This document shows, in pieces, positions 33,200 through 52,509 of a stretch of DNA of 64,000 bases; the first letter of the stretch is position 1, and the number at the start of each line of letters is the position of its first letter. The DNA lies in assembly GCA_964634365.1 (NCBI GenBank), contig CAZWJU010000001.1, forward strand, positions 21,858 through 85,857, in the 5' to 3' direction. This stretch comes from an uncultured Candidatus Saccharibacteria bacterium. GTDB lineage: Bacteria > Patescibacteriota > Minisyncoccia > Phycocordibacterales > UBA9973. The position numbers and the translations under genes were made by a program. The notes under the pieces were generated by a model that ran no database searches, was not told where the DNA came from, and saw only the letters and a list, made by a program, of their open reading frames with translations.

Positions 33200-33243
33200 T
33201 TTTACCCTTCTTAGAGAAGTGCAAATTGTGCTATAATTTCTCT

Positions 33244-35769
33244 ATGTTTTTTCGTCGTAGAGCCGGGACGAGTCATATTAAAAATACATGGATAGAAGAT
33301 ATTACGATTTCTGGTAAATCTAAGGTTCTTTCTCTGCGTCCAACATATTTTGTAATACGAATTGATAAACAAAAGATACGCGAACTTTTCAGTAAAGATA
33401 AATATTTTATAGGTTACGGCTTGGTTGTTTTGATTGTACTAGCAGTTTCATCTCTCTCTAATCCTACAAAAGCCGATGTTGTAAATTTCTATCCGACTAG
33501 CTGTCTTGGTGGATGGGAAAATCCTGAAAATGCAACCGGCGCTCCTAGTTTAGATAAAGACGAAAATTTAGAATCTTTCAATGAAGAAAATTCAGCTCGC
33601 ATGCGTGGCACTTCTGATATCTTTTGTGGAGGATTTGAAGGTGAGATACCTCCAGAGGCAGTTGCAAATTCTTTTTCTTTGAGTTTTAGAATATCTGTTG
33701 ACGATGGGTCTGTTGAACATAAAAAAACTGAAGTTCTTGTTGTGCCAGAAACAGAAGAGGTGCGAGTTGGCACTGATAATATAGAGCTCATAGAAATAGA
33801 AAGCTCAGATACAGAAAACCAATCTATTGATCCGACGGAAAACCAAGAAGTGTCTATTGAGCAAGATTCAACAAACACAGCAGAAACAGAGGAAGTTTCA
33901 ATACCAGAGTCAGAGATACCTACAGAAGATGTTCAAGTTGAAGCCCCAGCGCAAGAATCTCCAGAGCCAGAAAATTCACCAGAGTCAACTCCTGATACAA
34001 CAGAGTCTTCCGGTGAGTCTGCATTTTTGAGATTTTTTACAAGGAGAGTTCATGCTGAGGGCGAGGTTGTAACAGATTTAGAAGTTGCTGAAGATATTGT
34101 GTCACCGCAAGTTGAAGAAGCACCAGCTCAAGACACTATTTCAATCGAGGAGTCTGTTGTAGACGAACAATCTGCTGTTGAAAATCAAACTTCAGAACAA
34201 ATAGACACTGGACTAGAAGAGGTAATAAATATAGATAGATCTTCATCTGAAAATGATGAAATCGATTCGAGTGTCTCTGAAGATGGTAACACAGGAGATT
34301 TGGCAGAAGTTGTACCAAATGACGCAATACTTAAAATTATTTACACACTAGACGGAGAAAAATGGGTTTCACTCGGTTACATATCCATGAGCTCTTGGAA
34401 AGATTTGAAATTTAGTATTCCCTTAACAGATTGGTCTAGTGTGTCTAGTTTTCAAATAAAACTAGAACAGATTTCTAGTTACGACGAGAGACCTGTTGTT
34501 TTCTTGGATTCAATTATTCTTTCAGCTGAGTACGACGGACTAGGAGAAGATCCTATCAGACAACCAGACTTTGGAACAGATGTAATTTTGTATGATAAAA
34601 CAGTCGATGACATAAGAGTTATAAAAATACTACGCAACGATATACCAATGATTTGGTATACAAAAATTCCTCCACCAGTCGATTTACCTGAAGGAAAAAT
34701 ATTAGAAGAGCAAGATGGAGTGGAGATTATAATGGCTACAGATGATACTCCTATAGTGGACACAGAAACTCCAACAGATTCTTCTGGCGAGGGAGACGTT
34801 ACGTTGCCTGTGGAAGAGCCTGCGAGCGAGGTATTACCAACAGAAACTATACCTGAAAATCAAGATACGAATTCAACAGAAGAAGGTGCAGAAATAATAT
34901 CTTTTGTTAGAAAAATTAAAAATATTTTTGGTGTATTACAAGTTTATGCCGAAGGTGAAGAAGGCGGAGCTTCCGATGGAGGTTCTTCTGATAGTGGCGG
35001 AGGAGATAGTTCTTCTCAAGGAGGAGATTCATCTAGTACAACAAGCGAGAATGGTTCAGATTCAAGTAGTTCAGAATCTTCTTCTAGTGAATCAAATTCT
35101 TCGTCTGGTGCAGAAGAGAGTGTTAGTTCTATTGATCCTACGGATACAAATAATTCTGAAAATTCTGTTACGGAAGATTCTTTGGTTGAAGAAAACAATT
35201 CTGTTGTATCAGAATCTGATATTACAACAGATAATCAAGTAAGTGATTCAATAAACAAGGTTTTAGATGATATAAATATTGGTGAGGGTGGTAATATTAT
35301 TATTGATACTATTAACAAATACGATAACAGTGATATTAAGATTACAGAAGATCTTTTGTTGAGTACAACAGAAGAAATTATTCCTGGTTTAACACCTATT
35401 TTATATACAGAAGAGCAGATTATGGAAGAGAGGGCGAGTGGTGTGGAGTGGAATTTGGTTGCTGTAGGAGAATCTATTGATACATCAACACCTGTGGATG
35501 TAAGTGGAGGTATAATATTTTGGTTTGGGCCTGGTAAAAGTGTAATTTATCAGTACAACACAGCCTCAGGAGGAATATCTTCTGAAGGTGTCAGTGTAAC
35601 TACTGATTCGGAGGTAAAATATTTAGAGCCAAATGGTGATGTGTCTGAGGTGTCTATAGATATTCAAGATTCTGAAATAATTACACCAAAAGAAGAAATA
35701 GAAAGACAAGAAGCTATATTAGAATCAGAAAATAGTCAGACTAATATTATAGATACTGTTGACATATAA
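33244..35769 (+). CDS. large acidic Ser/Asp/Glu-rich cell-surface protein (N-terminal TM anchor)
   Basis: About 841 aa from the Met at 33244. TM helix GLVVLIVLAVSSL. Long low-complexity acidic tracts (SDGGSSDSGGGDSSSQGGDSSS...). No enzymatic motif. Confidence 0.5.
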   Translation: MFFRRRAGTSHIKNTWIEDITISGKSKVLSLRPTYFVIRIDKQKIRELFSKDKYFIGYGLVVLIVLAVSSLSNPTKADVVNFYPTSCLGGWENPENATGAPSLDKDENLESFNEENSARMRGTSDIFCGGFEGEIPPEAVANSFSLSFRISVDDGSVEHKKTEVLVVPETEEVRVGTDNIELIEIESSDTENQSIDPTENQEVSIEQDSTNTAETEEVSIPESEIPTEDVQVEAPAQESPEPENSPESTPDTTESSGESAFLRFFTRRVHAEGEVVTDLEVAEDIVSPQVEEAPAQDTISIEESVVDEQSAVENQTSEQIDTGLEEVINIDRSSSENDEIDSSVSEDGNTGDLAEVVPNDAILKIIYTLDGEKWVSLGYISMSSWKDLKFSIPLTDWSSVSSFQIKLEQISSYDERPVVFLDSIILSAEYDGLGEDPIRQPDFGTDVILYDKTVDDIRVIKILRNDIPMIWYTKIPPPVDLPEGKILEEQDGVEIIMATDDTPIVDTETPTDSSGEGDVTLPVEEPASEVLPTETIPENQDTNSTEEGAEIISFVRKIKNIFGVLQVYAEGEEGGASDGGSSDSGGGDSSSQGGDSSSTTSENGSDSSSSESSSSESNSSSGAEESVSSIDPTDTNNSENSVTEDSLVEENNSVVSESDITTDNQVSDSINKVLDDINIGEGGNIIIDTINKYDNSDIKITEDLLLSTTEEIIPGLTPILYTEEQIMEERASGVEWNLVAVGESIDTSTPVDVSGGIIFWFGPGKSVIYQYNTASGGISSEGVSVTTDSEVKYLEPNGDVSEVSIDIQDSEIITPKEEIERQEAILESENSQTNIIDTVDI

Positions 35770-38700
35770 CACACAAACAATGTATTTTTTGAAACCGAAA
35801 AGAAAAATAAAATCATTATTTAAGATATTTAATTTTAAAAAAATATTGGTTTTTATTTTTACAATAATGTTTTTATCCAGTGGTCTTACAGACTTGGTTT
35901 TGATGCGTGTGCTAGAAAAGAGATCAGACGATCCTGTTATGAAAAGTGCTGAAGCTGCTACCTATCAATTTTTCCCTACAGATGTAACAGTTGAAACTGG
36001 TACAGAGCAAACAGTTACTTCTCAGACCGCTGCTGCGGCTGAAGGTACAAACTTGGGTTCGCACACAGCGTTGCTAGGAAACGATGCTTTTCATTGGGCT
36101 GTTGCCTCGACTACTTCGGGTGTGTCTATGATCACAACTGTCGGTGGGGTAAACCTAAACGGTGCGAATAAGCTCGACATAGGTACGGAAATAGACTTAG
36201 ATGCAACTATTCCAGTTATAAGTTTTCAGATTTGTGACTGGAGAGATTCGACTAGTGTGAACAATGCCGCAGACGCAAACTGTACAACAGGTGGATGGAG
36301 GACTATCAATACAAAGAGCTTGACCAATACCGATGTGACTATTACTGGTACATCTACACTTCAGCTACGTTGGCAGATATACAACGGATATTTTTATAAT
36401 GGTTCAACGAATGGAGGAACACTGATTGACACACCGCTTGCAAACTTCGTTAGTGATTCAAATGAAATAAAAATTCGCTACTATGCAACAACAAATACCA
36501 CTTCTGTTGTGTCTATAGATTACCTCACAGTTTTTGCATATATCGACTCTATATACTATGCAAATTCATATTCAGATCTAACTGATGGTTCTGGTGGAAC
36601 AGAAAACGGAATAATCCCAAACACCATACCGGTTGTGAACACGGCCACGGCTTTTGCTTCGGCTGGTACAAACGACAACACTCGTTTCAGTGTCGCAGTA
36701 ACAACTCCTGCTAACAACCCAGACTTCTATTTGTCGTATAAAAATGTAAAACAGTATACAGGTATGAACACTATACTTTTAGGAACTTCGGTGAGTTGTA
36801 ACTCCGCTACTACAATACAAGCATATATTTATGACTTTACTGCAACCACCTGGGACACACTAGGCTCTGCTGTGTCGTGTACCACATCGGATGTGGATTA
36901 TCGTTTTGCTCACAACACAGTAGCTGACGCAGGCTTTGTTTTGAATGATTTCATATCAGACGGAGAGATTCGTATAAGATGGACCACAACTGCCGATGTT
37001 TCAAACAACGGTATAAGACTCGATTGGCAATATGTGATGCTCGGCTCTGTAAACTCGGATTCATCTTTGTGTGAAATATCTTTTGGTACAGGAACTGCAA
37101 CAAACTGCACAAACACTCGCGGTATGGATACAAACGGGTCTACAACATCTTTTGATATTGCAGGAGAGGATGAATCTGCAACTATGGGTACAGGAGAAGC
37201 GAATTCATTTTATGTGGCTGATACTGACCAAGACACGACTGTAGAAGAGGGTGTTTCTGCAAACATATCTTTTCCTATAACTGTGCCTACAAACGCTCAA
37301 GTGGTGGGTATAAACTGGGCGAGTCGGGAGACTTCGCGCAGTACAGGAACAACACAGGTTATAAATAGTGTTAGAGATTATTCTGGTTTTACCTCTACAG
37401 CAGGTGGATGGACCGATGTTGGTGCCGCTGTAAACGCCACAACTCAAACATATCAGGATACAGTAACACAAGGAGCGGTACTTTTGTGGGGACAACAAAT
37501 AAACCCAGAAGATTATGTAGATACAGTAAATGGTCGCATGAATATGCGTTTACGTACCTCGACATCTGGTGCAACAACTGACAACTCTACAACTGCTTGG
37601 GACTTTGCGATGATGTCTATACAGTGGATAGAAGATTCGTATAATCCTACAGTGACTTATCAATTTGCTCCAACAGGACAAACTCTTGTTACAGGCACTG
37701 ATACACAAGCAAACAACACTATTGCCGCTGGTGCAAACGGTGCAAACACTGGTTCGTGGAAGGGAACTCTTGCTGACGACAACAGGCATTGGGAGCTTAC
37801 TGGTACAGCTAGTGGTATAGATGTTCAGCTTTATATGAATGGTGTAAAGATAAATGGAGCTAATACAATTATTGTTCAATCTGAAATAGACGTCGACGCA
37901 ACTGCACCAGCACTTTTGATCCAGATATGTGATTGGGTGTCCACGACAAGTGTTGACCATGCAGCTGACGCCCAGTGTACTGGTGGTGGCTGGAGAACAC
38001 TTAACTCGCGTGATGTGACTGTTACTCCGACAACTGCAACCGCATATACATGGAATGTATACGATGGTAAATGGTCAAATGGTTCCAACACTCCGGTTTC
38101 TACTCCACTTTCAAACTTTGTTACAACGGATTCAAACAAGAGAGTTCTTATAAGATACTACTCAACAACAAACGCAACAACAGCAAGTAACTTCGCAATA
38201 GATTATTTGCGTATTTTCCCTGTTATTAATCCTGTGTACGAAGCAGGCGACGCAACTGCTCTTACAAACTCTTTTACAGGAGATTACACAAGCACAAACA
38301 CTGTGACTCAGGGTGCAGCTGACAACACAGACCTTCAGTGTCTTGGTACAACAGGAGGTCCAGACTGCTATTTGTCATTTTTTAATGTAAAAACATACCC
38401 GAGCATGAACACTATACTTGCACGATCGGAGTTTGCTTGTTCGGTTGGGGGTACTGCGCCTGAAGTCAAGATGGCATTTTACAATTTCACGACAGCAGGA
38501 TGGACAGATATCATAAATGAAATCGCTTCGTGTAGCACCACTGACACTGTTCGCATAGGAGCGGTGAATAATATTACAATAGGTGATTATGTACACAATG
38601 GTGAAGTAAGACTTAGATACTATCGTTCAAGTGGAACTGATACTGGTGCAATACAAATAGACTATGCATATATTATGGCTGGTACTACGAACTCTGATTC

Positions 38701-39796
38701 TGGGGCGACAAATTGCTTCATATCTTTTGGTACACTTTCTGCAAACGATTGTACTGCAGCAAGGACTATAAACATGAACGGTACGACAAACAATGGTACT
38801 ACTTGGCAGATCCTCGCTGAAGATGAAGATACTGATCGTGGTATCGGAGAGGCAAATACTTATTATCCTTTTGATACCGATGCGGATGCTGCGGCAACAG
38901 AAGAAGGTTCAGGATCGCACACCAAATTTTCTTTGAGTGGAGAACCAACGTACGGATCTATTACAGGAATATTTTTTTCATCTCAGCATATGGCTGGTAC
39001 TGGTGGAACCGTGGCTCTCGGTATTGCAGACTATTCGGGATATAACACGGCTGCCGCAACGATCGGAGGTTTTATAGCGCTCGGTGCAACCGCTACGACG
39101 GCTCTTGTATATACCGACAATATTACTGTAGGTACTACTGTTTCTGGTGGTGCTGCCGGATATATGACTAATCCAGATGATTTATTGAATACATCTGGCA
39201 ACGAAGCGTGGTTTCGTCTACGTACCTCGACTGATGGTAGCTCAGCAACAAACGCGGTTAGACAATGGGATTTTGCCATGATTGGGCTTCAGTGGGTAGA
39301 AACAGAAGATAGAACAATTTCGTTTGATATTTCTGATACAACTATAGGGTTCGGTCCTCTTACTACTTCGAATGCTCGTTATGCTACTGGAGATGCAGCT
39401 GGCAGCGACACGGAAGTAGAGGCGCATACAATATCAGCATCTTCTAGTGCAGCGGGCGGATATACAATAACTGTGCAAGGTAACACACTTACAAGTGGTG
39501 CGAACACAATAGATGCGATCGGTGGAACAAACACGGCTTCTAGTGCGGGGACAGAGCAGTTTGGAATAAAGGCATCTGTGTCAGGTGTCTCAAATTACCA
39601 TACCGTTGATTCTACATACTCAGGATCAGGATATGGATACGATGGAACTTCAAGTGCTTCAACTTTCGCAACACAATCCGAAGGCGACGGTTTTACTTCA
39701 ACATATTCTGTTAGTTATATTGCGAACATGTCTACAGGTACAGAGACTGGGGCATACTCTACAGATTTAAACTACATATTAACTGGTAATTTCTAG
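35759..39796 (+). CDS. giant (1345 aa) Thr/Gly/Asn-rich surface protein: N-terminal TM/signal, two tandem roughly 490-aa homologous modules, C-terminal WxL-like module
   Basis: Module 1 (about nt 36149-37630) and module 2 (about 37837-39310) align throughout (ICDW...CTTGGWRT, RYY.TTN, RLRTSTSG...WDFAM..QW). The last roughly 165 aa are homologous to the C-terminal halves of the ORFs at 39853 and 41036, and the protein ends ...LNYILTGNF. Confidence 0.6.
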   Translation: MTYNTQTMYFLKPKRKIKSLFKIFNFKKILVFIFTIMFLSSGLTDLVLMRVLEKRSDDPVMKSAEAATYQFFPTDVTVETGTEQTVTSQTAAAAEGTNLGSHTALLGNDAFHWAVASTTSGVSMITTVGGVNLNGANKLDIGTEIDLDATIPVISFQICDWRDSTSVNNAADANCTTGGWRTINTKSLTNTDVTITGTSTLQLRWQIYNGYFYNGSTNGGTLIDTPLANFVSDSNEIKIRYYATTNTTSVVSIDYLTVFAYIDSIYYANSYSDLTDGSGGTENGIIPNTIPVVNTATAFASAGTNDNTRFSVAVTTPANNPDFYLSYKNVKQYTGMNTILLGTSVSCNSATTIQAYIYDFTATTWDTLGSAVSCTTSDVDYRFAHNTVADAGFVLNDFISDGEIRIRWTTTADVSNNGIRLDWQYVMLGSVNSDSSLCEISFGTGTATNCTNTRGMDTNGSTTSFDIAGEDESATMGTGEANSFYVADTDQDTTVEEGVSANISFPITVPTNAQVVGINWASRETSRSTGTTQVINSVRDYSGFTSTAGGWTDVGAAVNATTQTYQDTVTQGAVLLWGQQINPEDYVDTVNGRMNMRLRTSTSGATTDNSTTAWDFAMMSIQWIEDSYNPTVTYQFAPTGQTLVTGTDTQANNTIAAGANGANTGSWKGTLADDNRHWELTGTASGIDVQLYMNGVKINGANTIIVQSEIDVDATAPALLIQICDWVSTTSVDHAADAQCTGGGWRTLNSRDVTVTPTTATAYTWNVYDGKWSNGSNTPVSTPLSNFVTTDSNKRVLIRYYSTTNATTASNFAIDYLRIFPVINPVYEAGDATALTNSFTGDYTSTNTVTQGAADNTDLQCLGTTGGPDCYLSFFNVKTYPSMNTILARSEFACSVGGTAPEVKMAFYNFTTAGWTDIINEIASCSTTDTVRIGAVNNITIGDYVHNGEVRLRYYRSSGTDTGAIQIDYAYIMAGTTNSDSGATNCFISFGTLSANDCTAARTINMNGTTNNGTTWQILAEDEDTDRGIGEANTYYPFDTDADAAATEEGSGSHTKFSLSGEPTYGSITGIFFSSQHMAGTGGTVALGIADYSGYNTAAATIGGFIALGATATTALVYTDNITVGTTVSGGAAGYMTNPDDLLNTSGNEAWFRLRTSTDGSSATNAVRQWDFAMIGLQWVETEDRTISFDISDTTIGFGPLTTSNARYATGDAAGSDTEVEAHTISASSSAAGGYTITVQGNTLTSGANTIDAIGGTNTASSAGTEQFGIKASVSGVSNYHTVDSTYSGSGYGYDGTSSASTFATQSEGDGFTSTYSVSYIANMSTGTETGAYSTDLNYILTGNF

Positions 39797-39852
39797 TATC
39801 TTTTTACTATTTAATATTTTCTGTGTTATTATGAATATAACGCATAAATATT

Positions 39853-40941
39853 ATGATAAAAAAAATTACTAGCTTAATAGTGATATTTTCTCTAATATTC
39901 ACAAACTATGTATGGTTTGTGAACAGGGCTCTCGCAGCAAGTGTCACAACTTTCTCAGATACACTTTCGACTCTCACTGCTGCAACAGCTTCTAATCATG
40001 AAATACTTTTCATTACACCTACTGGTGTTGAGGCAAACAATGATTCAATAGTATTTACTTTTACAGGTTTTGATGGTACATCACTCGACGCTATTGCTTT
40101 TGGTGATGTAGATTTGGCAGAGAGTGCAAACGCAAGTTGTTCTACGCCAGGTTCTTGGACAGATAAAACACTAGGTGCTGCTGACGGAGCCTCTACTTAT
40201 GGCGTTGCTACTAACTCGACAACACTTGTTTTTGATCCACCAACCACATCTGGCTATATAACAGCGGGAAGATGTATCCGTGTAAAAATTGGTACGAATG
40301 CAACAGGTGGTACAAACCAGATAACAAATGGTGGGGCCGCAACTGCGCATTCAGTAGCTATATCTGGAAACTTTGGAGATACTGGCACTGCTTCTATAGA
40401 TATTATTGCCGATGATTCAGTTAATTTGAGTGCTACTGTTGAATCTGCTATCTCATTTACAATAGACGATACGGCGATAGGTTTCGGTACACTAGATTCT
40501 GCTGGTGCCAGATGGGCAACCGGGGATGCGACAGGTACTTCTTCTCTACCAGGAGACACGTCCGGGGCACATCAAATGACACTTTCTACAAATGCTGCCT
40601 CTGGGTATTCGATTACATATAGTGGCGCAACACTAACAAGTGGTGCAAATACTATAGACGTAGCAACAATCTCAGAAGATGACGATGGATCATCGGGCAC
40701 AGAGCAATTTGCTTTGGGTCTAGATGATAATGGAGGTAACGTAACTATAGTTTCAGACTATGATCTAGCAACCACAAATAGTTATAAGTTTGTAGCTGGG
40801 GCGACCACAACCGTTGCTTCTGAGACAGCTCCTACTACAACCGAAACATTTGACGTCCAATATATTGCAAACATATCGACAAGTACTGAAGCAGGGTCAT
40901 ATTCGACAGATATTACTTGGATAGCAACGGGTAATTTCTAA
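39853..40941 (+). CDS. secreted surface protein, paralog 1, with WxL-like C-terminal module
   Basis: 362 aa. Signal peptide ending ALA|ASVT. C-terminal module ISFTIDDTAIGFGTL...GYSITYSGATLTSGANTI...YSTDITWIATGNF resembles the WxL domain pattern (LTF..DFG ... GWTLT ... YTGTLTWTL), with Y/W and A/L substitutions. Confidence 0.5.
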   Translation: MIKKITSLIVIFSLIFTNYVWFVNRALAASVTTFSDTLSTLTAATASNHEILFITPTGVEANNDSIVFTFTGFDGTSLDAIAFGDVDLAESANASCSTPGSWTDKTLGAADGASTYGVATNSTTLVFDPPTTSGYITAGRCIRVKIGTNATGGTNQITNGGAATAHSVAISGNFGDTGTASIDIIADDSVNLSATVESAISFTIDDTAIGFGTLDSAGARWATGDATGTSSLPGDTSGAHQMTLSTNAASGYSITYSGATLTSGANTIDVATISEDDDGSSGTEQFALGLDDNGGNVTIVSDYDLATTNSYKFVAGATTTVASETAPTTTETFDVQYIANISTSTEAGSYSTDITWIATGNF

Positions 40942-41035
40942 GGTATGATATCCACAGTGTTGCTATGATATTTTTTGTGTGTTTATATGGTACAATTTTA
41001 GAATAGATTATTAAATTATTATCCAGATTTTAAAT

Positions 41036-42118
41036 ATGATAAAAAAATTTACAAGCCTTCTAGTAATACTTTCTGTAGTCGCTACTAATTTTGTAGGTTT
41101 TGCAGATAAAGCTCTTGCTGCCAGTGTTACTTCTTTGTCTGATACACTTGCAACACTTACAGCATCTACTGCCTCAAACCACGAAATAAAGTTTGTAACA
41201 CCTTCTGGTGTCGATGCTGGTGAGTCAGTATCTGTGACTTTTGACGCTGATTTCACAGGACTTGGTTCTATTGTTGAAGACGATGTTGACTTCGCAACTG
41301 GTGATTCGAGTAACTGTTCTACAGCGAGCTTTACCGAAGAAACAACAGCCTCTTCTCCTTCAGGTGCCACATGGGGGGTTGGTATAGCTGGACAGGTTGT
41401 AACAATAACTTCAGGAACAGACACTGTAACGGCCAGCCGATGTGTTCGTATAAGGATTGGTACAAACGCTACAAACTCTGGAACAGGTGCAAACCGGATA
41501 TCAAACGGAGTTGCAGCTAACGCTCACTCTATAACAATAGGTGGAACATTTGGCGACTCAGGCACAGCAGCAATCGACATAATCGCAGACGACTCAGTAA
41601 ACATAACAGCAACAGTTGATCCTACTATAACTTTCACAATATCTGATACAACAGTTGGTTTCGGAACACTCTCTACCTCAGTTGCAACTTATGCAACAGG
41701 TGATACTAACGGTACAACTTCTCTTCCTGGTGACACATCAGGAGCTCATGAGATGACAGTAGCAACCAACGCATCTTCTGGATATTCGATAACATATAAC
41801 GGTGCAACTTTGACATCAGGAGGAAACACTATTTCAGCAGCCACAATCTCATCTGACAACGACGGAACCCCAGGTTCAGAACAATTCGCTCTAGGAATTG
41901 ATGACAACGGAGGAAACGTAACCATTGCTTCAGGATATGATCTCGCTGGTACAAACAGTTACAACTTTGTAGCTGGCACTACCACAACAGTCGCATCTGA
42001 AACAATTGCCACAGCAACAGAAACTCTAGATGTTCAATATATTGCTAACATAGCAGGTACAACTGAAGCTGGTTCATACACAACAAACATTACTTGGATA
42101 GCTACAGGTAACTTCTAA
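41036..42118 (+). CDS. secreted surface protein, paralog 2, with WxL-like C-terminal module
   Basis: 360 aa, collinear with the 39853 ORF. Same signal peptide and the same C-terminal ...YTTNITWIATGNF. Confidence 0.5.
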   Translation: MIKKFTSLLVILSVVATNFVGFADKALAASVTSLSDTLATLTASTASNHEIKFVTPSGVDAGESVSVTFDADFTGLGSIVEDDVDFATGDSSNCSTASFTEETTASSPSGATWGVGIAGQVVTITSGTDTVTASRCVRIRIGTNATNSGTGANRISNGVAANAHSITIGGTFGDSGTAAIDIIADDSVNITATVDPTITFTISDTTVGFGTLSTSVATYATGDTNGTTSLPGDTSGAHEMTVATNASSGYSITYNGATLTSGGNTISAATISSDNDGTPGSEQFALGIDDNGGNVTIASGYDLAGTNSYNFVAGTTTTVASETIATATETLDVQYIANIAGTTEAGSYTTNITWIATGNF

Positions 42119-42123
42119 AATGT

Positions 42124-43167
42124 ATGATTAAAAGAAGATCAATAATAGTCACACTATTTGTTGCGCTATCATTTGTTTCTTTTGGTTTTGTTAAAAATGC
42201 TGAGGCTCTAACACTTACTCCGGTTAGACTAGAGATTAGTGGAGACGCTGGTAGTACAGTTTCAAGTGAGATTACTCTTATAAACGACAGAGACACAGAA
42301 GAAACATTTTATTCTTCATATGCGAACTTTGAAGCTCAAGGTGAGACAGGAAGTCCAAACTTCGTTGATCCTGTAGAAGGTCTTGGAACATGGATAAAAA
42401 CAGATGAAGTTGTAGTATTAGGTCCTGGCACAAGTAAGATTATACCTGTAACAATAACCATACCTGCAGGCACTGAAGCAGGAGGATACTTTGCTGCTGT
42501 ATTTTTCGGTACAAACAATCCTAACTTAGGTGATGCTGGTAGTGTTTCTATTGGTGCAAAGACTGGAGTGCTTGTATTGCTACGAGTAAACGGTGAAGTT
42601 AGTGAGCAGGGTGGAATACTCGAATACGATACAAAGGATCACAAGAGATTTTTCACATCACTACCTGTTGATTTTTATTACAGATTTCAAAATACAGGAG
42701 GAGATAGAGTTAAACCAGAAGGAGATATAACAATAAAACACTTTCTCGGTTTTGTTCGTGCAAGAGTTCCAGCTAACTTAGTAGAGGGAAATGTCCTACC
42801 AAACCAAATTCGAAGATTTGAAGCTTCATGGCAGAGTAGAAATGGGGAAAGTGTAAAAGAAGGAGAAAAATTGAACTTTATTGAGAGTGTAAAAAACCAA
42901 TGGGCAAACTTTGCCTTCGGTTATTACAAGGCAAATATAAGTCTTACATATGGAGAGGGTGATAAGATTACAGAATCTTCTGTGGGTGTATGGGTTTTTC
43001 CATGGCAACTACTCCTAACTATAATCGTAGCTCTGTTCACAGTAAGATTTATTTGGAGAAAGGTTTCTATACACAGAAGAAAAGAATTGATGTCTGAGAT
43101 GCGTGAAGAAATCATGAAAGAGATGAACAATAAATCTAATACTGAAAAAACTCATATACAGTTTTAG
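42124..43167 (+). CDS. secreted Ig-like protein with C-terminal TM anchor (DUF916/DUF3324, CscA-like)
   Basis: 347 aa. Signal peptide. Beta-rich LTLTPVRLEISGDAGSTVSSEITLIN... domain. C-terminal TM WQLLLTIIVALFTV followed by a charged tail. This architecture matches the anchor component of Gram-positive WxL (Csc) clusters. Confidence 0.4.
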   Translation: MIKRRSIIVTLFVALSFVSFGFVKNAEALTLTPVRLEISGDAGSTVSSEITLINDRDTEETFYSSYANFEAQGETGSPNFVDPVEGLGTWIKTDEVVVLGPGTSKIIPVTITIPAGTEAGGYFAAVFFGTNNPNLGDAGSVSIGAKTGVLVLLRVNGEVSEQGGILEYDTKDHKRFFTSLPVDFYYRFQNTGGDRVKPEGDITIKHFLGFVRARVPANLVEGNVLPNQIRRFEASWQSRNGESVKEGEKLNFIESVKNQWANFAFGYYKANISLTYGEGDKITESSVGVWVFPWQLLLTIIVALFTVRFIWRKVSIHRRKELMSEMREEIMKEMNNKSNTEKTHIQF

Positions 43168-43182
43168 TATAGGTAAAGGCCG

Positions 43183-44082
43183 ATGTCTTTATTTAATAAA
43201 AATAAAAAGCATATTATGGGTATATTTTTGCTCGGTATGCTTTTTATTTTTTCTGCTGAAGTATCTAGTGCAGTTGATTTGAATATATCTGCTCAGGTTG
43301 GTGCGGGTGGTGGAGATGTCGGAGGTGGCGGAGGAGGAGGCGGTGGTGGAGGTGGTGGAAACGACGGAGACTCCACTGTAAATTTTTCTGGGTATGCTTA
43401 TCCGCTTTCGCAAGTTATAGTACTTCGTGATGGCTTAGAAGTAATCCAGACTATTGCAGGGCCAGATGCAAAATTTAGTATAAGTATCGACAATCTTCCA
43501 GAGGGCAACTACACTTTTTCTGTTTTAGCAGAAGATTATCAGGAGAGAAGATCTACACTCTTCACGTTCCCTCTATATCTAACCGATGGCCTTACTACGA
43601 CTATATCTGGTATATTCATCGCTCCTTCTATAGCTATAGACAAGAGTGTGGTCAAGCAAGGTGAGCAGCTTACTATCTTTGGACAATCTACTCCAAATTC
43701 CGAAGTGTCTATAAGCGTAAACTCACTAAATGAATTTATTTTGAATACTATCTCAGACAGTAGTGGTGTGTATTTATCTGTATTTAATACAAGTCTTCTT
43801 GAGATAGGAGACCATACTACGCGTTCATACTCTAAGTATCTAGATGCAACATCTTCATACTCTAGTACACTTGCTTTTGAGGTTTCTGACAAAGCAGGAG
43901 AGGTTTTAATTTGCGGAAGCAAAGCAGATGTTAGTTTAGATTGTCGTATAAATATAATAGATTTCTCTATGCTAGCTTATTGGTTTGAGAGAGTAACTCC
44001 ACCACCCGCTTTTGATCTTTCAGGTGATGGTAAAATAACTTTGATTGATTTTTCTATAATGGCTTATTATTGGACAGGATAA
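43183..44082 (+). CDS. secreted protein with poly-Gly tract and C-terminal dockerin-like repeats
   Basis: 299 aa. Signal peptide. 15 consecutive Gly encoded by GGN repeats at 43316-43360. C-terminus INIIDFSMLAYWF...DLSGDGKITLIDFSIMAYYW resembles the two dockerin type I Ca-binding repeats. Confidence 0.5.
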   Translation: MSLFNKNKKHIMGIFLLGMLFIFSAEVSSAVDLNISAQVGAGGGDVGGGGGGGGGGGGGNDGDSTVNFSGYAYPLSQVIVLRDGLEVIQTIAGPDAKFSISIDNLPEGNYTFSVLAEDYQERRSTLFTFPLYLTDGLTTTISGIFIAPSIAIDKSVVKQGEQLTIFGQSTPNSEVSISVNSLNEFILNTISDSSGVYLSVFNTSLLEIGDHTTRSYSKYLDATSSYSSTLAFEVSDKAGEVLICGSKADVSLDCRINIIDFSMLAYWFERVTPPPAFDLSGDGKITLIDFSIMAYYWTG

Positions 44083-44084
44083 AT

Positions 44085-44984
44085 ATGAAAATAAATTATT
44101 TCAAAATATTTTTTATAGTTACTTTTTTTGCACTAAACTATAACTTTGCTTTTTCTAGTGGGGCAGATTTGATATTAAAATCTCCGGAAGGTGAAGTAAA
44201 AACGAATAGCCCTTTTTCTGTTAGTGTTTTATTGGATACATCGGGCGACGATACCAATGCAGTAGAAGGTGCTCTCTCTTTCAATGAAGATTTTTTTGAA
44301 TTTGTAAGTATTGTTGATGGTAACAGTGTGGTTACTTCTTGGGTTCAAAAACCAGAGTACGAAAATGGAAAGATAGTTTTCTCTGGAATCATGGCTGGAG
44401 GGTATTTGGGTACAATCGATCCGCTTACTAATGCTATAGGCCCAGGTATTTTGTTTGAAATAATTTTAATTCCAAAAACTGAAGGGATTGGCTCTGTGAC
44501 GCTGTCTGATGCAAAAATTTATAAAAATGATGGACTAGGTACATCCAAGAGCGTTGCAACTAAGGATTTAAAAATAAGTTCGGATGTAAATGGGGTTTCA
44601 AATTATCTAGACAAGATAGACGATGTTCGCCCTCTTGTTTTCTCGCCTATAATTTCAAAAAATAATGAAATGTTCGAAGGTAGATATTTCCTCGTGTTTG
44701 ATACCAAAGATAAAGAGTCCGGTATAGATTATTTTGAAGTTAAAGAGGGTAGAAAAGACTGGGTAAGAGCAGAGAGCCCATATGTACTCACAGACCAAAC
44801 ACTAACTAGTCGTATACGTGTTAAAGCAGTAGACAATGCTGGGAATGAGCGCATAGTTACTTACGGAGAAAAAACAAATTTTCCTATTTCGATTCTCTCT
44901 ATACCAATTGTACTTCTACTTGGCATAATAGTGTTTATATATTTTTGGTACACTAGAAAAATACGTGTTTTAAGTGTAAAATAA
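44085..44984 (+). CDS. cohesin-like domain protein with C-terminal TM anchor
   Basis: Start at MKINYF. Signal peptide. Cohesin-like beta-sandwich pattern (FSVSVLLDTSGDDTNAVEGALSFNEDFFEFVSI...GKIVFSGIMAG...GILFEIILIPKTEG). C-terminal TM PIVLLLGIIVFIYFW. Confidence 0.45.
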   Translation: MKINYFKIFFIVTFFALNYNFAFSSGADLILKSPEGEVKTNSPFSVSVLLDTSGDDTNAVEGALSFNEDFFEFVSIVDGNSVVTSWVQKPEYENGKIVFSGIMAGGYLGTIDPLTNAIGPGILFEIILIPKTEGIGSVTLSDAKIYKNDGLGTSKSVATKDLKISSDVNGVSNYLDKIDDVRPLVFSPIISKNNEMFEGRYFLVFDTKDKESGIDYFEVKEGRKDWVRAESPYVLTDQTLTSRIRVKAVDNAGNERIVTYGEKTNFPISILSIPIVLLLGIIVFIYFWYTRKIRVLSVK

Positions 44985-44989
44985 AATAC

Positions 44990-46753
44990 ATGATTCTCTC
45001 TTCGGTTAATATAAAAAGATTTTTGATTGCAGTCTTTGCCTGTTTATTTTTTATTTCTCCAAAACTTACCCACGCTGCTTCGTTTCAGATATCTCCTTCG
45101 TCTGGTAGTGTCTCAAGCTCAGGTACCATAACTTTAACTGTCAGTCTAACAGCAAGTTCTGCCACCCCGATCAATGCTTTTTCTGGTAGATTGAATTTCC
45201 CAAAAGAATTAGTTTCTAATACAAATGTATCTATTAGTGGTTCAATCGCAAATTTTTGGACAGTGCAACCATCTGTATCTTCTGATGGAGTAATAAGATT
45301 CGAAGGAATTGTTTTAAATCCTGGTTTCAATGGTTCAGGAGGCAAATTATTTACTGCAACATTTAAAACAGAAGGTAACGGTACAGCAAACTTCAATCTG
45401 ACTAGCGCATCGATTTTGGCCAATGATGGATTGGGTACAAATGTTTTGACTGCTACGCTACCTGCGTCTGTATTTACTATTGGCAATGCAGCGCCTGTCG
45501 CAACTACTCCCGCTACAACTAGTTCTGCTCCGATTGCTCCAGAAATAATATCTCTATCGCATCCAAATCCAAATGGATGGAACAAGGAGACTGTGGCTGA
45601 TATATATTGGGAGCTTCCAAAAGACGCAACCGGCGCCTCATTTGTTTTAGATAAAAATCCTGGGACTATACCAGCGAAAGTTTCAAAAGGATTGGTGAGT
45701 TCATATAAGTCTGAAAAACTAGAAGACGGTGTATGGTACATGCACGTAATGATAAGAAATTCTATCGGGTGGGGAAGTGTTGCTCACTACAGAATCGGTG
45801 TTGATACAGTTGCGCCAGAGTATGTGAACATAACTCATGTTCACGAGGAAATACCTATGGGTACTAGCAAGTTTGATATAACTGGTGAAGATGCAACTTC
45901 TGGTATAGCTTATTATGAAGTAAGTTTTGATGCAGGTGAGCCAGAAATTTTTAAGAAATCACTAGCAACAGATTTGTTTGAGTCAAAAATTTTACCACCT
46001 AAAAGATACTTGGTTGTTGTAAATGCATATGACTTTGCCGGAAACGCGACTCCAGCGATTATGTACTTCACTGCACTACCAGTGAACCCACCTGTTATTG
46101 TAGATTATTCCAAAGAATTAAATAGCGGAGAATATTTGACTATTTCAGGTACTGGATATGAAAATCAAAATGTAAGAATTCGTTTTGAAAAAAGTAAAAC
46201 ATCTTTCTTTTATAAAATATTTGCACACACTAGAAGTGCGGCGTTGAATGAAGAGGTAACAAAAGTAGACAAGGATGGGAACTTTGCTTTCAAAAATGAT
46301 GAATCTTGGAACGCTGGAATATATTATGTAACAGTTCGAAACGAACTATCCAACGGAGCTTTCAGTGAATACACAACTCCTGTTCAAATAACAGTAGAGA
46401 GTGGTGCTTTTGTTAGATTCATAGAATCCTCTCTAAGATTCTTGATACCTGTTATTCCTTTCTTGCTTGCAATCATACTTATACTTTTTGCAGGATTATT
46501 TATTTTAAGATTTTTCAAAAAATACAGAAGAATCCTGTCTAAACAAGTAAGAGAAGCTGAGGGTGTGGACGATGAATCTATGAGATTGATTGACAGTGAA
46601 GTCTTGGATGAGATAAATCTTCTCAAAAAAGTACGCTCAGGTGAACCTCTGTCAGAAAGAGAGCAGGCTTTCCTAACTAAACTTCGAGGGGATTTGGGTG
46701 TTGCAAATTCTATAATTCAAAAAGAAATAAAAGATATAGAAAAGAAAATATAA
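44990..46753 (+). CDS. cohesin-like domain surface protein with C-terminal TM anchor and charged cytoplasmic tail
   Basis: 587 aa. Signal peptide. Cohesin-like N-terminal domain (TITLTVSLTASSATPINAFSGRLNFP...GVIRFEGIVLNPGFNGSGGKLFTATFKTEG). TM near residue 500. Coiled-coil tail. Confidence 0.45.
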   Translation: MILSSVNIKRFLIAVFACLFFISPKLTHAASFQISPSSGSVSSSGTITLTVSLTASSATPINAFSGRLNFPKELVSNTNVSISGSIANFWTVQPSVSSDGVIRFEGIVLNPGFNGSGGKLFTATFKTEGNGTANFNLTSASILANDGLGTNVLTATLPASVFTIGNAAPVATTPATTSSAPIAPEIISLSHPNPNGWNKETVADIYWELPKDATGASFVLDKNPGTIPAKVSKGLVSSYKSEKLEDGVWYMHVMIRNSIGWGSVAHYRIGVDTVAPEYVNITHVHEEIPMGTSKFDITGEDATSGIAYYEVSFDAGEPEIFKKSLATDLFESKILPPKRYLVVVNAYDFAGNATPAIMYFTALPVNPPVIVDYSKELNSGEYLTISGTGYENQNVRIRFEKSKTSFFYKIFAHTRSAALNEEVTKVDKDGNFAFKNDESWNAGIYYVTVRNELSNGAFSEYTTPVQITVESGAFVRFIESSLRFLIPVIPFLLAIILILFAGLFILRFFKKYRRILSKQVREAEGVDDESMRLIDSEVLDEINLLKKVRSGEPLSEREQAFLTKLRGDLGVANSIIQKEIKDIEKKI

Positions 46754-46764
46754 TATCTTATAAT

Positions 46765-47601
46765 ATGAATTTTAAAAAAATATTCCTAATCACAATAATA
46801 CTACTTTCTTTTTCTAGTCCAGTGCTGGCCATAGAATCAAATAATACTGGTTTTATATCAGAAAGCGTTTGGTTTTCCGAAGAAGATTTAGTCTTGGGGG
46901 AAAGTGTAAATATATATACAGCTTTGTTCAACAATTCCTCTTCTGTACTTGAGGGAAGTGTTACCTTTTTTGACAAAGATGTAGTATTAGGAGTTAAGAC
47001 TTTTTCTATACCTGAAAAATCTGTAAGGGATGTAAAACAATCTTGGATTGTAACATCAGGAGATCATGAGTTGTATGCGAGTCTAAGTATCAAAAAAACT
47101 GACATAGAGCTTGGTGAAAAAATTACAGAACCACTTAAATTCACAATCCAAGCCCCTGTTGTTGCCGAAAAAGATTTGGTAGCTGATGAAACCAAAGAAT
47201 TGCTATCTGATGTAGATGATATACAAGAAAAAATTATAGAAAGTATTCCGCCGGAGGTTTCAGATAAACTGGAGTCTTCTCTGTTTGGAGTGGAGAGTTT
47301 TAGAATTGAAACCTCCAGTAATATAGAAGAAAAGAAAGATGCCAAGCAAGAAGTTGTCGATAATTTAAAATCTCTACCGGAGAAAGATTCAGTTGATTTA
47401 GAGATCGGTCTAGAAGATGGGAAAACAAACGTAGATGTAAAATCCACCCCACTAGATACGCCTCTTGCTTATGCTGGTCTGTTTTTCTACACAATACTTA
47501 GCTATATATTCAAGTCCACGATAATATTCTATGGGCTTTGTATTATATTGATATTCTTGGTTTTGCGGGCTATTTACAGAGCTATGCGTAGACGCTCTTA
47601 A
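46765..47601 (+). CDS. secreted protein with C-terminal TM anchor (hypothetical)
   Basis: 278 aa. Signal peptide. Acidic mid-region. C-terminal TM. Confidence 0.4.
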   Translation: MNFKKIFLITIILLSFSSPVLAIESNNTGFISESVWFSEEDLVLGESVNIYTALFNNSSSVLEGSVTFFDKDVVLGVKTFSIPEKSVRDVKQSWIVTSGDHELYASLSIKKTDIELGEKITEPLKFTIQAPVVAEKDLVADETKELLSDVDDIQEKIIESIPPEVSDKLESSLFGVESFRIETSSNIEEKKDAKQEVVDNLKSLPEKDSVDLEIGLEDGKTNVDVKSTPLDTPLAYAGLFFYTILSYIFKSTIIFYGLCIILIFLVLRAIYRAMRRRS

Positions 47602-47663: not shown

Positions 47664-47924
47664 ATGCCTAGGCCACTTTTTATCGTATTGATATTTGCAA
47701 GCGTTATTTGGGCGCCTTGGTGGTTTTCTTTTATAATGATATTTAGCGGGATAATTTTTCTGGATTTCTCGCTAGAGTCTATACTGGCAGCTTTTTTGGT
47801 TGATATGCTTTATGGGGTAGGATTGTCTAGATTTATCGACGGGCCTTTTGTCTTTACTCTCGTGGCGCTTGTTTTATTTTTTGGTAAAAGATTTTTAAAA
47901 CCTTATATTTTTATAAATAAATGA
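47664..47924 (+). CDS. small polytopic membrane protein, possibly MreD-like (located immediately upstream of the PBP2-like gene)
   Basis: 86 aa with 3 TM helices. Assigned on position only, which is weak. Confidence 0.3.
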   Translation: MPRPLFIVLIFASVIWAPWWFSFIMIFSGIIFLDFSLESILAAFLVDMLYGVGLSRFIDGPFVFTLVALVLFFGKRFLKPYIFINK

Positions 47925-49606
47925 TTTTCAAAAGACGCAGGAGAAAAATAGCTATACCCGAAGTAGATCCAGATGAAATATTTTTGGATTCTCAAAACAT
48001 ACCTTCTTTCGATAGTCAGCAATTTGAAGGCAGAATCGAAAGTGCCATACCAAAACGCACAATATTTTTTCTAGGCTCTTTTTTTGCTCTTGTCGGAGTC
48101 GTGTTTGTTTTCAAGGCTGGTGTATTGCAATTGAAGATGGCTGCGGCTTATGCGCTTCGAAGTGAACAAAACAGTTTAGATACTATACCGCTTTTTTCTG
48201 ATAGAGGTGTTATTTTCGATAGAAACGGAGTTGAACTTGTCACAAACAAAATGATTCCGGATTCTGATTTTCCGGTTAGGAATTATACAGACAAACAAGG
48301 CTTTTCTCATATCTTGGGTTATGTAAGTTATCCAGCAAAAGATACTAGTGGAGTGTATTGGCAGAAGGAGATTATTGGTAAAGATGGAATCGAAAAATCT
48401 ATGAACAGTGTCTTGTCTGGTAAAAACGGTTTGAAAATTTTTGAGACAGATGCGTTAGGGAAAATACAATCTGAAAATTTAGTGAATACTCCAGAGCATG
48501 GAGAAAACATAACTTTGGCTATAGATGCGCGCTTGCAAAACGAATTTTCTTTGGCGATTGAAAGATTGGCCGAGACAGCAGGCTTTATTGGAGGAGCTGG
48601 GGTGATTATGGATGTAAATACAGGAGAGATTATTGTTATGACTAGTTTTCCTGAATACGATTCAAATATTTTATCTTTAGGAAGCGATAGAGAAACTATA
48701 TCTAGATATATTCATGACAATCGTAAAGTATTTTTAAATAAAACAGTCGGGGGGCTTTATACACCCGGATCCATAGTGAAGCCTTTTGTGGCGGTCGGGG
48801 CTCTCATGGAAGATGTAATCGATCCGAACAAGCAGATTTTAAGTACAGGATCTATATCTTTACCAAACCCATACAATCCAGAGTTGAAAACTGTTTTCAA
48901 CGATTGGAAGGCTCATGGCTGGGTAGATATGCGCAAGGCTCTGGCTGTTTCTTCGAACGTTTATTTTTATGAAATTGGTGGAGGGTTTCAAGATCAGAAG
49001 GGTTTGGGTATAAGCAATATTAAAAAGTATACTCAAATGTTTGGTCTCGGTAAAAAGACTGGGGTAGATGTAGCTGGTGAGCTTACTGGTACGATTCCTT
49101 CACCAGAATGGAAAGAGAAAAATTTCCCAGGCGATATATGGAGAATAGGAGATACTTACAACACTGCTATTGGTCAGTATGGATTTCAGGTTACTCCAAT
49201 TCAGATGGTTAGAGCAGTTGCTGCTATTGCAAACGGTGGAAAGTTACTGACTCCTACTATATTAAAAACCGATAAGCCCGTTGGAAATATTGAAAGTATT
49301 GATATACCAGAAGATGTTTTAAATATTGTTCGAGAAGGAATGCGCATGGTTGTAACAGAAGGCACTGGTTCCATAATGAACTACTCAGGTATCACTGTAG
49401 CTGCAAAAACTGGTACAGCCCAAGTTGGAATATCTAAAAATTATATGAACTCATGGTCAATGGGATTCTTCCCATATGAGAACCCTAAATATGCTTTCAT
49501 TGTGCTTATGGAAAAAGGCCCAAAGACAAATACTATTGGAGCAAGTCATGTTATGAAAGATGTGCTTTACTATATAAACACCTATGCCCCAGAATACGCA
49601 GAATAG
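47921..49606 (+). CDS. mrdA: penicillin-binding protein 2-like transpeptidase
   Basis: 561 aa. N-terminal TM. SxxK (GSIVKP), SxN (SSNVYFY) and KTG (AAKTGTAQ) motifs. PBP dimerisation domain. Stop codon is TAG. Confidence 0.75.
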   Translation: MIFKRRRRKIAIPEVDPDEIFLDSQNIPSFDSQQFEGRIESAIPKRTIFFLGSFFALVGVVFVFKAGVLQLKMAAAYALRSEQNSLDTIPLFSDRGVIFDRNGVELVTNKMIPDSDFPVRNYTDKQGFSHILGYVSYPAKDTSGVYWQKEIIGKDGIEKSMNSVLSGKNGLKIFETDALGKIQSENLVNTPEHGENITLAIDARLQNEFSLAIERLAETAGFIGGAGVIMDVNTGEIIVMTSFPEYDSNILSLGSDRETISRYIHDNRKVFLNKTVGGLYTPGSIVKPFVAVGALMEDVIDPNKQILSTGSISLPNPYNPELKTVFNDWKAHGWVDMRKALAVSSNVYFYEIGGGFQDQKGLGISNIKKYTQMFGLGKKTGVDVAGELTGTIPSPEWKEKNFPGDIWRIGDTYNTAIGQYGFQVTPIQMVRAVAAIANGGKLLTPTILKTDKPVGNIESIDIPEDVLNIVREGMRMVVTEGTGSIMNYSGITVAAKTGTAQVGISKNYMNSWSMGFFPYENPKYAFIVLMEKGPKTNTIGASHVMKDVLYYINTYAPEYAE

Positions 49607-49650
49607 TCATTTTTTGTTGACTTTTAGGCTCTAAAAGCTACAATACTCTC

Positions 49651-50121
49651 ATGCAAAAAGACGAAGAATATATAAGTGCTGAACGAAAAAAGGCTTTAGA
49701 AATAGAACTTCACGAACTTCAGACTGTCAAAAGAAAAGAAATACTTGAGAACCTTGAGTATGCAAAATCACTCGGAGATCTATCTGAAAATGCAGAATAT
49801 CACCAGGCACGTGACGAGCAAGGTAAGCTTGAGGAGCGTATTGCTAAAATAGAACACATACTCCAATCATCAAAAATCATAAGTAAATCAACTGGTGGAA
49901 CTAGTATAGACATAGGATCAAAAGTGGTTGTATCAAAAGTTGATTCTGATCAAAAACAAGAATACGAAATAGTAGGTAGCGAAGAAGCTGACATGGCACA
50001 AGGTAGACTGTCACACCGTTCTCCACTAGGTATAGCGCTTATGGGCAAAACAAAGGGTGATACAGTGAACATAGAATCACCAAGAGGAAAGTCGAGTTAT
50101 AAAATAGTTTCAGTTCAATAA
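49651..50121 (+). CDS. greA: transcription elongation factor GreA
   Basis: 156 aa. N-terminal coiled-coil with conserved acidic residues. C-terminal FKBP-like domain. Confidence 0.8.
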   Translation: MQKDEEYISAERKKALEIELHELQTVKRKEILENLEYAKSLGDLSENAEYHQARDEQGKLEERIAKIEHILQSSKIISKSTGGTSIDIGSKVVVSKVDSDQKQEYEIVGSEEADMAQGRLSHRSPLGIALMGKTKGDTVNIESPRGKSSYKIVSVQ

Positions 50122-50125
50122 TTTT

Positions 50126-51589: not shown

Positions 51590-51600
51590 ACACAAAAAGT

Positions 51601-51625
51601 AAAACCTCCCAGAAGGGAGGTTTTT
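51601..51625. terminator. bidirectional intrinsic terminator
   Basis: aaaacctcccagaagggaggtttttatttt. Confidence 0.65.
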
Positions 51626-51629
51626 ATTT

Positions 51630-51923: not shown

Positions 51924-52012
51924 AGTGTGCTGTTTTTATTAGATTACCACAAATATATTCTTTGTCAAAAGAGAGTGATTTTAGTTATCCACAGAATTAA
52001 ATTTGTTGGATT

Positions 52013-52057: not shown

Positions 52058-52071
52058 AAATATTAAAAACT

Positions 52072-52506: not shown

Positions 52507-52509
52507 AAT

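Follow-up and report, generated by a model that had tools for sequence, protein, structure and literature searches.

Nine successive open reading frames (ORFs) on the + strand, named G1 to G9, occupy positions 33226/33244-47601 of the window, the 64-kb stretch of contig CAZWJU010000001.1 analyzed here in its full length. They are most probably (roughly 85%) a Pam-type pilus operon, Pam being the donor-strand-exchange pilus specific to the candidate phyla radiation (CPR), with the named pilins PamA/B/E/T (10.64898/2026.03.03.709456). The whole cluster is likely best explained as a variant of this pilus belonging to Paceibacteria-like CPR lineages. Judged from sequence, this variant appears to be widespread and would use only one chaperone, a hypervariable tip protein of giant size, and a terminator that bears a dockerin and is paired with cohesin anchors. 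The original prediction, made from the letters of the DNA, had described the same genes as a surface cluster joining WxL-like and CscA-like components to dockerin-like and cohesin-like proteins and had proposed a dedicated attachment apparatus in a reduced genome; it was right about the apparatus in this CPR genome, and wrong about the WxL-like nature of the module that three of the proteins share.

All nine products carry an N-terminal hydrophobic signal or anchor segment, and G5, G7, G8, and G9 have an additional C-terminal transmembrane (TM) segment. The spacing between neighboring genes ranges from -13 to +94 nt, and no enzyme family was found among the G1-G9 products in Pfam and NCBIfam scans, in agreement with the earlier description of nine same-strand signal/TM genes free of enzymatic motifs. 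Usher and sortase families were likewise not found in the nine proteins with these two libraries, nor was an LPx[TSA]G motif, and a sortase-dependent pilus is thereby ruled out.

The shared C-terminal module of approximately 165 amino acids, noticed beforehand in the proteins of 1345, 362, and 360 residues, was confirmed by alignments and by a hidden Markov model (HMM) of the module, which matches exactly the G2, G3, and G4 ORFs in the whole window (E 1e-38 to 6e-73). Full-length identity between G3 and G4 is 62%; residues 1182-1345 of G2 share 44% identity with residues 195-362 of G3 (E=3e-26), and the sequence motifs first quoted for the module lie inside this alignment. All three pass the NCBIfam model NF058581 ('CPR_Pam_pilin_C, Pam pilus system pilin subunit'), whose curated cutoff is 55 bits, with 68.6 bits for G2, 85.9 for G3, and 71.0 for G4, as do the tip-position proteins of two other loci (L037, 61.2 bits; L047, 73.2 bits). 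By this sequence criterion, the module is the Pam pilin C-terminal domain (CTD). Pfam WxL gave no match to G2, G3, or G4 at E<=1 or to any of 57 homologues at E<=0.01, none of which (0/57) carries two W-x-L motifs in its last 170 residues, so that a WxL domain identity of the CTD is ruled out. The original prediction had itself listed a module belonging to some other family, such as pilins, as the result that would speak against it, and that is the result obtained with NF058581.

The Pam pilus was described in a 2026 preprint from the CPR parasite Candidatus Mycosynbacter amalyticus (Saccharimonadia), where cryo-EM of the filament identified the pilins PamA and PamB; in each of them, a single linker strand joins an N-terminal beta-sandwich to a truncated immunoglobulin (Ig)-like CTD, which accepts the linker strand of the neighboring subunit (10.64898/2026.03.03.709456). 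The pam operon also encodes two PapD/FimC-like chaperones that end in a TM helix (PamC and PamD), a tip pilin consisting of the CTD only (PamT), and the RbmA-like anchor PamR, in which an N-terminal strand is combined with a TM helix (10.64898/2026.03.03.709456). G3 consists of a signal peptide, an N-terminal beta-sandwich (residues 29-182), and the CTD (residues ~197-362). Its AlphaFold2 model (57 homologues; predicted local distance difference test score, pLDDT, 92) has strands in residues 29-182 and a beta domain in residues 200-362; for the monomer, no secondary structure was modeled in the linker between them (residues 183-199). In the consensus of the pilin family, this linker region is the best-conserved stretch. 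Fold searches returned generic Ig-like adhesin and pilin folds only, the resemblance to RrgB, EbpB, and Spb1 being of this generic kind, and no Pam structure was found in the PDB copy searched. When the PDB was searched by sequence, nothing useful came from G3, G5, G7, G8, either G2 repeat, or the profile of the pilins. The CTD family membership and the predicted folds suggest that G3 and G4 would form a filament.

The linkers of both pilins carry a seven-residue motif, defined as [VILT]x[VILM][ST]Ax[VI], which reads VNLSATV in G3 (residues 190-196) and VNITATV in G4 (residues 188-194) and recurs in the linker of 67 of 82 G4-like pilins from other genomes; its background rate is 0.016 per 100 residues of background ORFs. 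The motif also stands at the mature N-terminus of 66 of 70 G6 orthologues, mostly directly downstream of the signal peptide, with a Gly/Pro-rich linker following it; G6 itself has it as LNISAQV (residues 33-39), ahead of a poly-Gly linker. At the corresponding position of the G2-like proteins, taken as a BLAST family, it was found in 0 of 31. An HMM-based census of CTD proteins gave a similar distribution, with the motif in 44 of 62 proteins of pilin size, 1 of 16 large ones, and 1 of 14 small ones, and the commonest gene order is a motif-less CTD protein followed by one or more motif-bearing pilins. The similarity between the G6 motif and the pilin linker of the same genome is 3.14, compared with 1.05 +/- 0.52 for permuted pairs (0/5000 permutations), with phylogeny uncontrolled. 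In a donor-strand system, G2 would bring only a groove, G3 and G4 both strand and groove, and G6 only a strand; G2 is therefore placed at the tip, G3 and G4 in the shaft, and G6 as the proximal terminator of the proposed fiber.

Behind its signal peptide and strand motif, G6 combines two Ig-like domains, matching Big_6 of Pfam, with a C-terminus that matches Pfam Dockerin_1 (PF00404) at 24.2 bits against a cutoff of 22.9 (residues 248-294). Among 49 orthologues, Dockerin_1 is matched by 45 (best E 1.1e-8) and Big_6 by 39, and the family consensus has a duplicated Ca-loop/helix segment whose two repeats show invariant Asp, Phe, and Ser columns, which bears out the dockerin-like C-terminus of the original prediction. 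A PDB sequence search with G6 gave Gly-linker noise and a weak dockerin match only. G6 agrees with the PamR-type plan in its N-terminal strand motif and its two Ig-like domains, but its C-terminus is a dockerin, not a TM helix. In some G6 orthologues (loci L006, L010, L012, L069, L076, and L082), a Cys-rich segment with the pattern CGDDxIGxGExCDGxDLGGxxCxSxGFxxGTLxCxxxCxFNTSxC replaces or precedes the poly-Gly linker.

The next two genes encode the membrane-anchored cohesin-like proteins. In G7, a signal peptide and a cohesin-like domain are followed by a small beta domain of OmpL47/DUF3981-like type (barrel_OmpL47, 30.1 bits, below its cutoff) and by a TM segment at residues 273-291. The profile of its family matches the Ruminococcus flavefaciens cohesins 5aoz and 5m2o in the PDB (E 1e-4 and 3e-4, respectively), Pfam Cohesin (PF00963) is found in 9 of 49 orthologues (best E 1.3e-6), and some homologues are named 'cohesin domain-containing protein'. 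G8 is composed of a signal peptide, a cohesin-like domain (residues ~28-160), Ig-like domains, a TM segment (residues 488-506), and a cytoplasmic tail of ~80 residues; its N-terminus aligns with the G7 family in hhalign at a probability of 99% (E=4e-18), and its orthologues match Pfam Cohesin in 13 of 48 cases (best E 2.2e-16) and Big_13 in 19 of 48. At the family level, then, the cohesin-like assignment of both proteins stands. Given the C-terminal dockerin of G6 and the membrane-anchored cohesins encoded by the two genes behind it, a cohesin-dockerin fixing of the fiber is proposed, which would stand in for the TM helix of PamR. A cellulosome was considered as well and is ruled out, since the cluster contains no enzymes or carbohydrate-binding modules (CBMs).

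The arrangement is kept in other genomes. For the synteny sample, one genome per GTDB species was scanned with the G5 profile, which gave 80 CPR loci, many of them on truncated contigs. The order, always on one strand, is a CTD protein of variable size, one or more pilins, G5, G6, G7, and G8, with G6 in 75 of the 80 loci, G7 in 73, G8 in 62, and a pilin before G5 in about 78. Where the names of these loci are informative, they point to Nomurabacteria, Paceibacterota, Parcubacteria (including RAAC4_OD1_1), Falkowbacteria, and Peribacteria; several other record titles, such as 'Pseudomonadales' and 'Gammaproteobacteria', are plainly wrong. Conservation extends to the G6-G8 synteny and not to the housekeeping flanks; the cohesin and dockerin genes are therefore regarded as core parts of the cassette and not as chance neighbors.

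G5 is the PapD/FimC-like protein with a C-terminal TM helix that the operon encodes. It has a signal peptide, Ig-like domains at residues 34-155 and 163-291, and a TM helix followed by a charged tail, and its model (pLDDT 87) shows the two Ig-like domains as beta-sandwiches with the C-terminal helix. Its close homologues number 954, mostly unnamed, with some labeled Nomurabacteria or Paceibacterota, and a search of 1.84 billion protein clusters gave 9624 representatives of the family at E<=1e-3. Alignments to RbmA span one domain (105 residues), whereas those to chaperone-usher chaperones and to WxLIP span both (163-181 residues). The donor-strand motif is missing from the mature N-terminus of G5 and was seen anywhere in the protein in 4 of 81 family members. 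Two basic residues of domain 1, R35 on its first strand and K146 on its last strand, show conservation of 90% or more. In PapD, Arg8 and Lys112 anchor the C-terminal carboxylate of the pilin, and the two basic residues of G5, together with the aromatic C-termini of the G2-like proteins, may recall this arrangement by analogy. It is rather probable that G5 acts as a membrane-tethered chaperone of PamC/PamD-like, PapD-like, and WxLIP-like kind. The DUF916/CscA-like architecture formerly assigned to this gene holds as far as the Ig-like domains and C-terminal TM segment go. Specific homology to WxLIP is at most suggestive at the sequence level: PF06030 (DUF916/WxLIP_PGBD) is matched by half of the G5 orthologues at E<=0.01, but in ten orthologues examined the matches, some 40 residues long, score 14-21 bits (cutoff 27.3) and stand alongside generic Ig families, PF11797 (DUF3324) was matched by none of these ten, and the G5 profile aligns with WxLIP in the PDB at E 0.23. 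A solved structure of EfmWxLIP1 is available as PDB 9i1y / 9i25 (released 2026-01-28), of which 9i25 has WxLIP as chain C and may be a complex with a second protein.

G2 is built from two tandem repeats of ~565 residues, 38% identical when the halves are compared directly (E=2e-108), followed by the CTD, in which the NF058581 match spans residues 1207-1345; the linker or donor-strand motif was not found in G2. In related loci, the first CTD gene encodes 277-2937 residues and has only the CTD in common with G2, and one version bears autotransporter-type beta-strand repeats. The first CTD gene is thus hypervariable. In 39 of 39 G2-like proteins, the last residue is aromatic. Because it has the CTD groove and lacks the linker strand, G2 would fit only at the distal tip, and from its sequence this role has odds somewhat above even. 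The gene before it, G1, has a TM-like signal-anchor segment at residues 60-78, no family match in Pfam or NCBIfam, and homologues in 12 of the 80 loci. In four loci, a G1-like N-terminus is fused to a protein of 2582-2903 residues with a pilin C-terminal tail, so G1 may be a piece of the tip protein that has become a gene of its own; its sequence and distribution suggest a lineage-specific accessory or tip-associated protein. The fusions lie at L005:790-8700, L007:835-8763, L011:71-8782, and L013:904-8652, and their N-terminus matches G1 residues ~7-540. The G1 and G2 ORFs (33244-35769 / 35759-39796) overlap by 11 nt.

From the CTD family membership, the predicted folds, the dockerin and cohesin assignments, the synteny, and the motif distribution, we infer a filament, a chaperone, a subunit order, and an anchor that could work together as follows. 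All components would be exported by Sec, after which G5, as the chaperone, would cap the incomplete C-terminal Ig-like CTD of G2, G3, and G4. The linker strand of an incoming G3 or G4 (V-N-[LI]-[ST]-A-T-V) would then take over from the strand of the chaperone in the groove of the preceding subunit's CTD. G2, with its CTD, no linker strand, and an 1100-residue duplicated N-terminal region, would sit at the distal tip as an adhesin, and G6, which has the strand motif at its mature N-terminus but no CTD, would end the fiber. The G6 dockerin would finally bind the cohesins of the C-terminally membrane-anchored G7 and G8 and so fix the pilus to the cell. The last part of this scheme, G6 as a terminator anchored through cohesin-dockerin binding, is tentative and follows from the domain content of the three proteins. 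Still more tentative is the wider proposal that such a non-covalent joint, with the N-terminal strand of G6 in the last pilin and its dockerin in G7/G8, takes the place of a membrane-anchored subunit, cell-wall ligation, or an usher, with the hypervariable, groove-only G2 as the tip that recognizes the host.

Three other explanations were weighed against the Pam-type pilus. In a WxL/Csc-type surface complex, the CTD would be a non-covalent cell-wall-binding domain that G5, as WxLIP/CscA, stabilizes on peptidoglycan, and no filament would form. It draws on a resemblance that is real in architecture and possibly in mechanism, but in sequence the WxL domain and the dual W-x-L motif are absent from the three proteins and the 57 homologues, there is no LPxTG partner, the PF06030 matches stay below threshold and are accompanied by generic Ig families, PF11797 gives no match, and the CTD passes the model of a pilin family whose founding members are filaments in cryo-EM; this explanation is very improbable. 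It is also improbable, though less so, that G5 is a PamR-like membrane anchor or terminator, with chaperoning done elsewhere or needless. The one-domain alignment to RbmA against the two-domain alignments to chaperones and WxLIP, the conserved basic residues R35 and K146 of domain 1, and the lack of a donor-strand motif at the mature N-terminus of G5, where G6 has one, all argue against this role. A third explanation would make the locus two independent neighbors with no physical link, a Pam-type pilus (G2-G5) and a separate cohesin-dockerin scaffold (G6-G8) that displays G6. Cohesin-dockerin pairs occur outside cellulosomes in many prokaryotes, which favors it, and so does locus L082 (L082:6711-12549; GCA_030154545.1, a relative of Ca. 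Microsyncoccus/Minisyncoccus), where a G6-G7-G8 module (48%, 39%, and 31% identity, respectively) is preceded by a secreted protein of 488 residues and a single-domain TM protein of 254 residues, neither recognized by the Pam CTD HMM or NCBIfam. We consider it unlikely, since the G5-G6-G7-G8 adjacency is kept in 62-75 of the 80 species with short or overlapping junctions and the pilin-linker motif is found at the mature N-terminus of nearly all G6 orthologues, where it covaries with the linker of the same-genome pilin.

The Pam-type pilus operon, which we prefer to all three, has its own difficulties, and several results count against it or against parts of it. G5 matches no NCBIfam Pam model and no Pfam PapD model, and the PamT equivalog NF058579 (cutoff 240) gave at best 32.2 bits within the cluster (G3) and 38.9 bits elsewhere (L047). 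The G7 and G8 of the window are themselves unmatched by PF00963, which is found in only some of their orthologues. The covariation between the G6 motif and the pilin linker is weakened by the uncontrolled phylogeny, and the G6-G8 module may not be strictly tied to Pam pilins, as L082 indicates. The 488-residue protein of that locus contains W-T-L and a stretch, 'ISVSIDDGSIEYGVL', that resembles 'ISFTIDDTAIGFGTL' of the pilin, and L082 may represent a divergent fiber type with the same anchor.

The coordinates of the genes and of their main parts are collected in Table 1.

Table 1. Genes of the cluster, their mapped parts, and other features of the window (positions in the window; ATG 33244, 35780, and 44085 are the likely true starts of G1, G2, and G7; ORF lengths in amino acids).
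Feature	Position	Strand	Length	Description
G1	33244..35769	+	847 (841-847)	Acidic low-complexity surface protein with N-terminal signal-anchor
G2	35780..39796	+	1345	Giant candidate tip adhesin with signal/TM segment, two repeats, and Pam pilin CTD
G2 first repeat	about 35936-37648	+		Tandem repeat
G2 second repeat	about 37649-39313	+		Tandem repeat
G2 CTD	39302-39796	+		Pam pilin CTD
G3	39853..40941	+	362	Putative shaft pilin with beta-sandwich, linker motif, and Pam pilin CTD
G3 linker motif	40420-40440	+		VNLSATV
G4	41036..42118	+	360	Putative second shaft pilin, paralogue of G3
G4 linker motif	41597-41617	+		VNITATV
G5	42124..43167	+	347	Candidate membrane-tethered pilus chaperone with two Ig-like domains and C-terminal TM segment
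G6	43183..44082	+	299	Candidate pilus terminator/adaptor with strand motif, Big_6 domains, and C-terminal dockerin
G6 strand-like motif	43279-43299	+		LNISAQV
G6 dockerin	43924-44064	+		Dockerin_1
G7	44085..44984	+	304/299 (299 in the public gene call)	Membrane-anchored cohesin-like protein
G7 cohesin-like domain	about 44157-44573	+		
G8	44990..46753	+	587	Larger membrane-anchored cohesin-like protein
G8 cohesin-like domain	45071-45469	+		
G9	46765..47601	+	278	Accessory surface protein with signal peptide, Ig-like region, acidic linker, and C-terminal TM segment
Downstream genes	47921-55461			Division/cell-wall cluster
LOOT RNA	61636-61761	+		Rfam RF03000

The last gene, G9, has weak Ig-like matches only, a TM segment at residues 252-270, and homologues in 6 of the 80 loci, and is best taken as a lineage-specific accessory. 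A scan for promoters and terminators gave signals at chance level and was uninformative. Upstream of the cluster lie genes for an Rce1-like CPBP protease and a DedA/VTT protein, and the downstream cluster encodes a PBP2-type transpeptidase, GreA, LysS, MraZ, RsmH, and a second penicillin-binding protein. None of these genes accompanies the cassette in a conserved way elsewhere, and the flanking ones considered as members of it (CPBP protease, DedA/VTT, PBP2, GreA, and LysS) are therefore ruled out. The window also contains a full-length match to the Rfam LOOT RNA at 92.7 bits against a gathering threshold of 46.4. Many public records of metagenome-assembled genomes with the cassette (L003, L022-L024, L027, L028, L030, and others) bear the title 'uncultured Gammaproteobacteria', 'Pseudomonadales', or 'Candidatus Saccharibacteria'. 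They encode proteins with 42-86% identity to those of the window, and the record names are probably unreliable as taxonomic labels.

How CPR (Patescibacteria) cells recognize and hold their hosts is a central open question, and the Paceibacteria, with very few cultures, are almost untouched in this respect. The cluster offers candidate host-attachment proteins in this largest and least studied class of the CPR. If the proposed scheme is true, the cassette is a widespread attachment organelle, and its specificity determinant, the hypervariable first CTD gene, could be read directly from genomes. On the same condition, it would be the first pilus known to us to be held by a cohesin-dockerin pair, and it would link Pam pili, WxL/WxLIP clusters, and chaperone-usher pili, whose literatures do not cite each other. 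The earlier suggestion that the apparatus had not been described in this form applies in part: the Pam pilus as a kind has been described (10.64898/2026.03.03.709456), while its combination with cohesins and a dockerin still appears to be undescribed. Cohesin, dockerin, WxL, DUF916, and Paceibacteria are unmentioned in that preprint, and no paper tying cohesin-dockerin modules to CPR pili was found in the literature.

The cluster resembles the Pam system in a pilin CTD that passes NF058581, in two-domain pilins with a conserved interdomain linker, in two paralogous shaft pilins, in a PapD-like chaperone candidate with a C-terminal TM helix, in Sec signals throughout, and in its restriction to the CPR. 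It differs in having one chaperone-like gene where the pam operon has two (PamC and PamD), and in a tip candidate that is a duplicated giant here and spans a wide range of sizes in relatives, compared with the CTD-only PamT. No TM-anchored PamR was identified in the cluster, which has the strand-plus-dockerin protein G6 and two TM-anchored cohesin proteins instead, and no ATP-synthase genes are present among the flanking genes checked. The lineage looks like Paceibacteria, whereas Pam pilins were reported mainly from Saccharimonadia and Microgenomatia (10.64898/2026.03.03.709456).

The likeness to cohesin-dockerin systems lies in the duplicated Ca-loop/helix dockerin of G6 and in the N-terminal domains of the G7 and G8 families, which match Pfam Cohesin and PDB cohesins. 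Unlike cellulosomes and the non-cellulosomal systems, the cluster has no glycoside hydrolases, CBMs, or SLH domains, its cohesins are held by a C-terminal TM segment, and its dockerin protein carries a pilin-like strand in place of an enzyme. Compared with the chaperone-usher pili (Pap, Fim, CFA/I, and Csu), there is no outer-membrane usher, the chaperone candidate is membrane-tethered, the pilins have an extra N-terminal domain, and the putative donor strand is an interdomain linker and not an N-terminal extension, except in G6.

The WxL clusters of Firmicutes combine a small and a large WxL protein with a WxLIP, and AlphaFold2 models show a WxLIP strand completing the WxL beta-sandwich (PMC10599100). 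From these, the present cluster differs in lacking the WxL motif, a Pfam WxL match, and an LPXTG component, and WxL proteins are thought to bind peptidoglycan and not to polymerize. The strand completion by WxLIP, although it is not interpreted in this way in PMC10599100, can be seen by analogy as the same principle as chaperone complementation, and the Pam and Firmicute WxL/WxLIP clusters may be two branches of an ancient monoderm donor-strand system, a 'chaperone without usher'.

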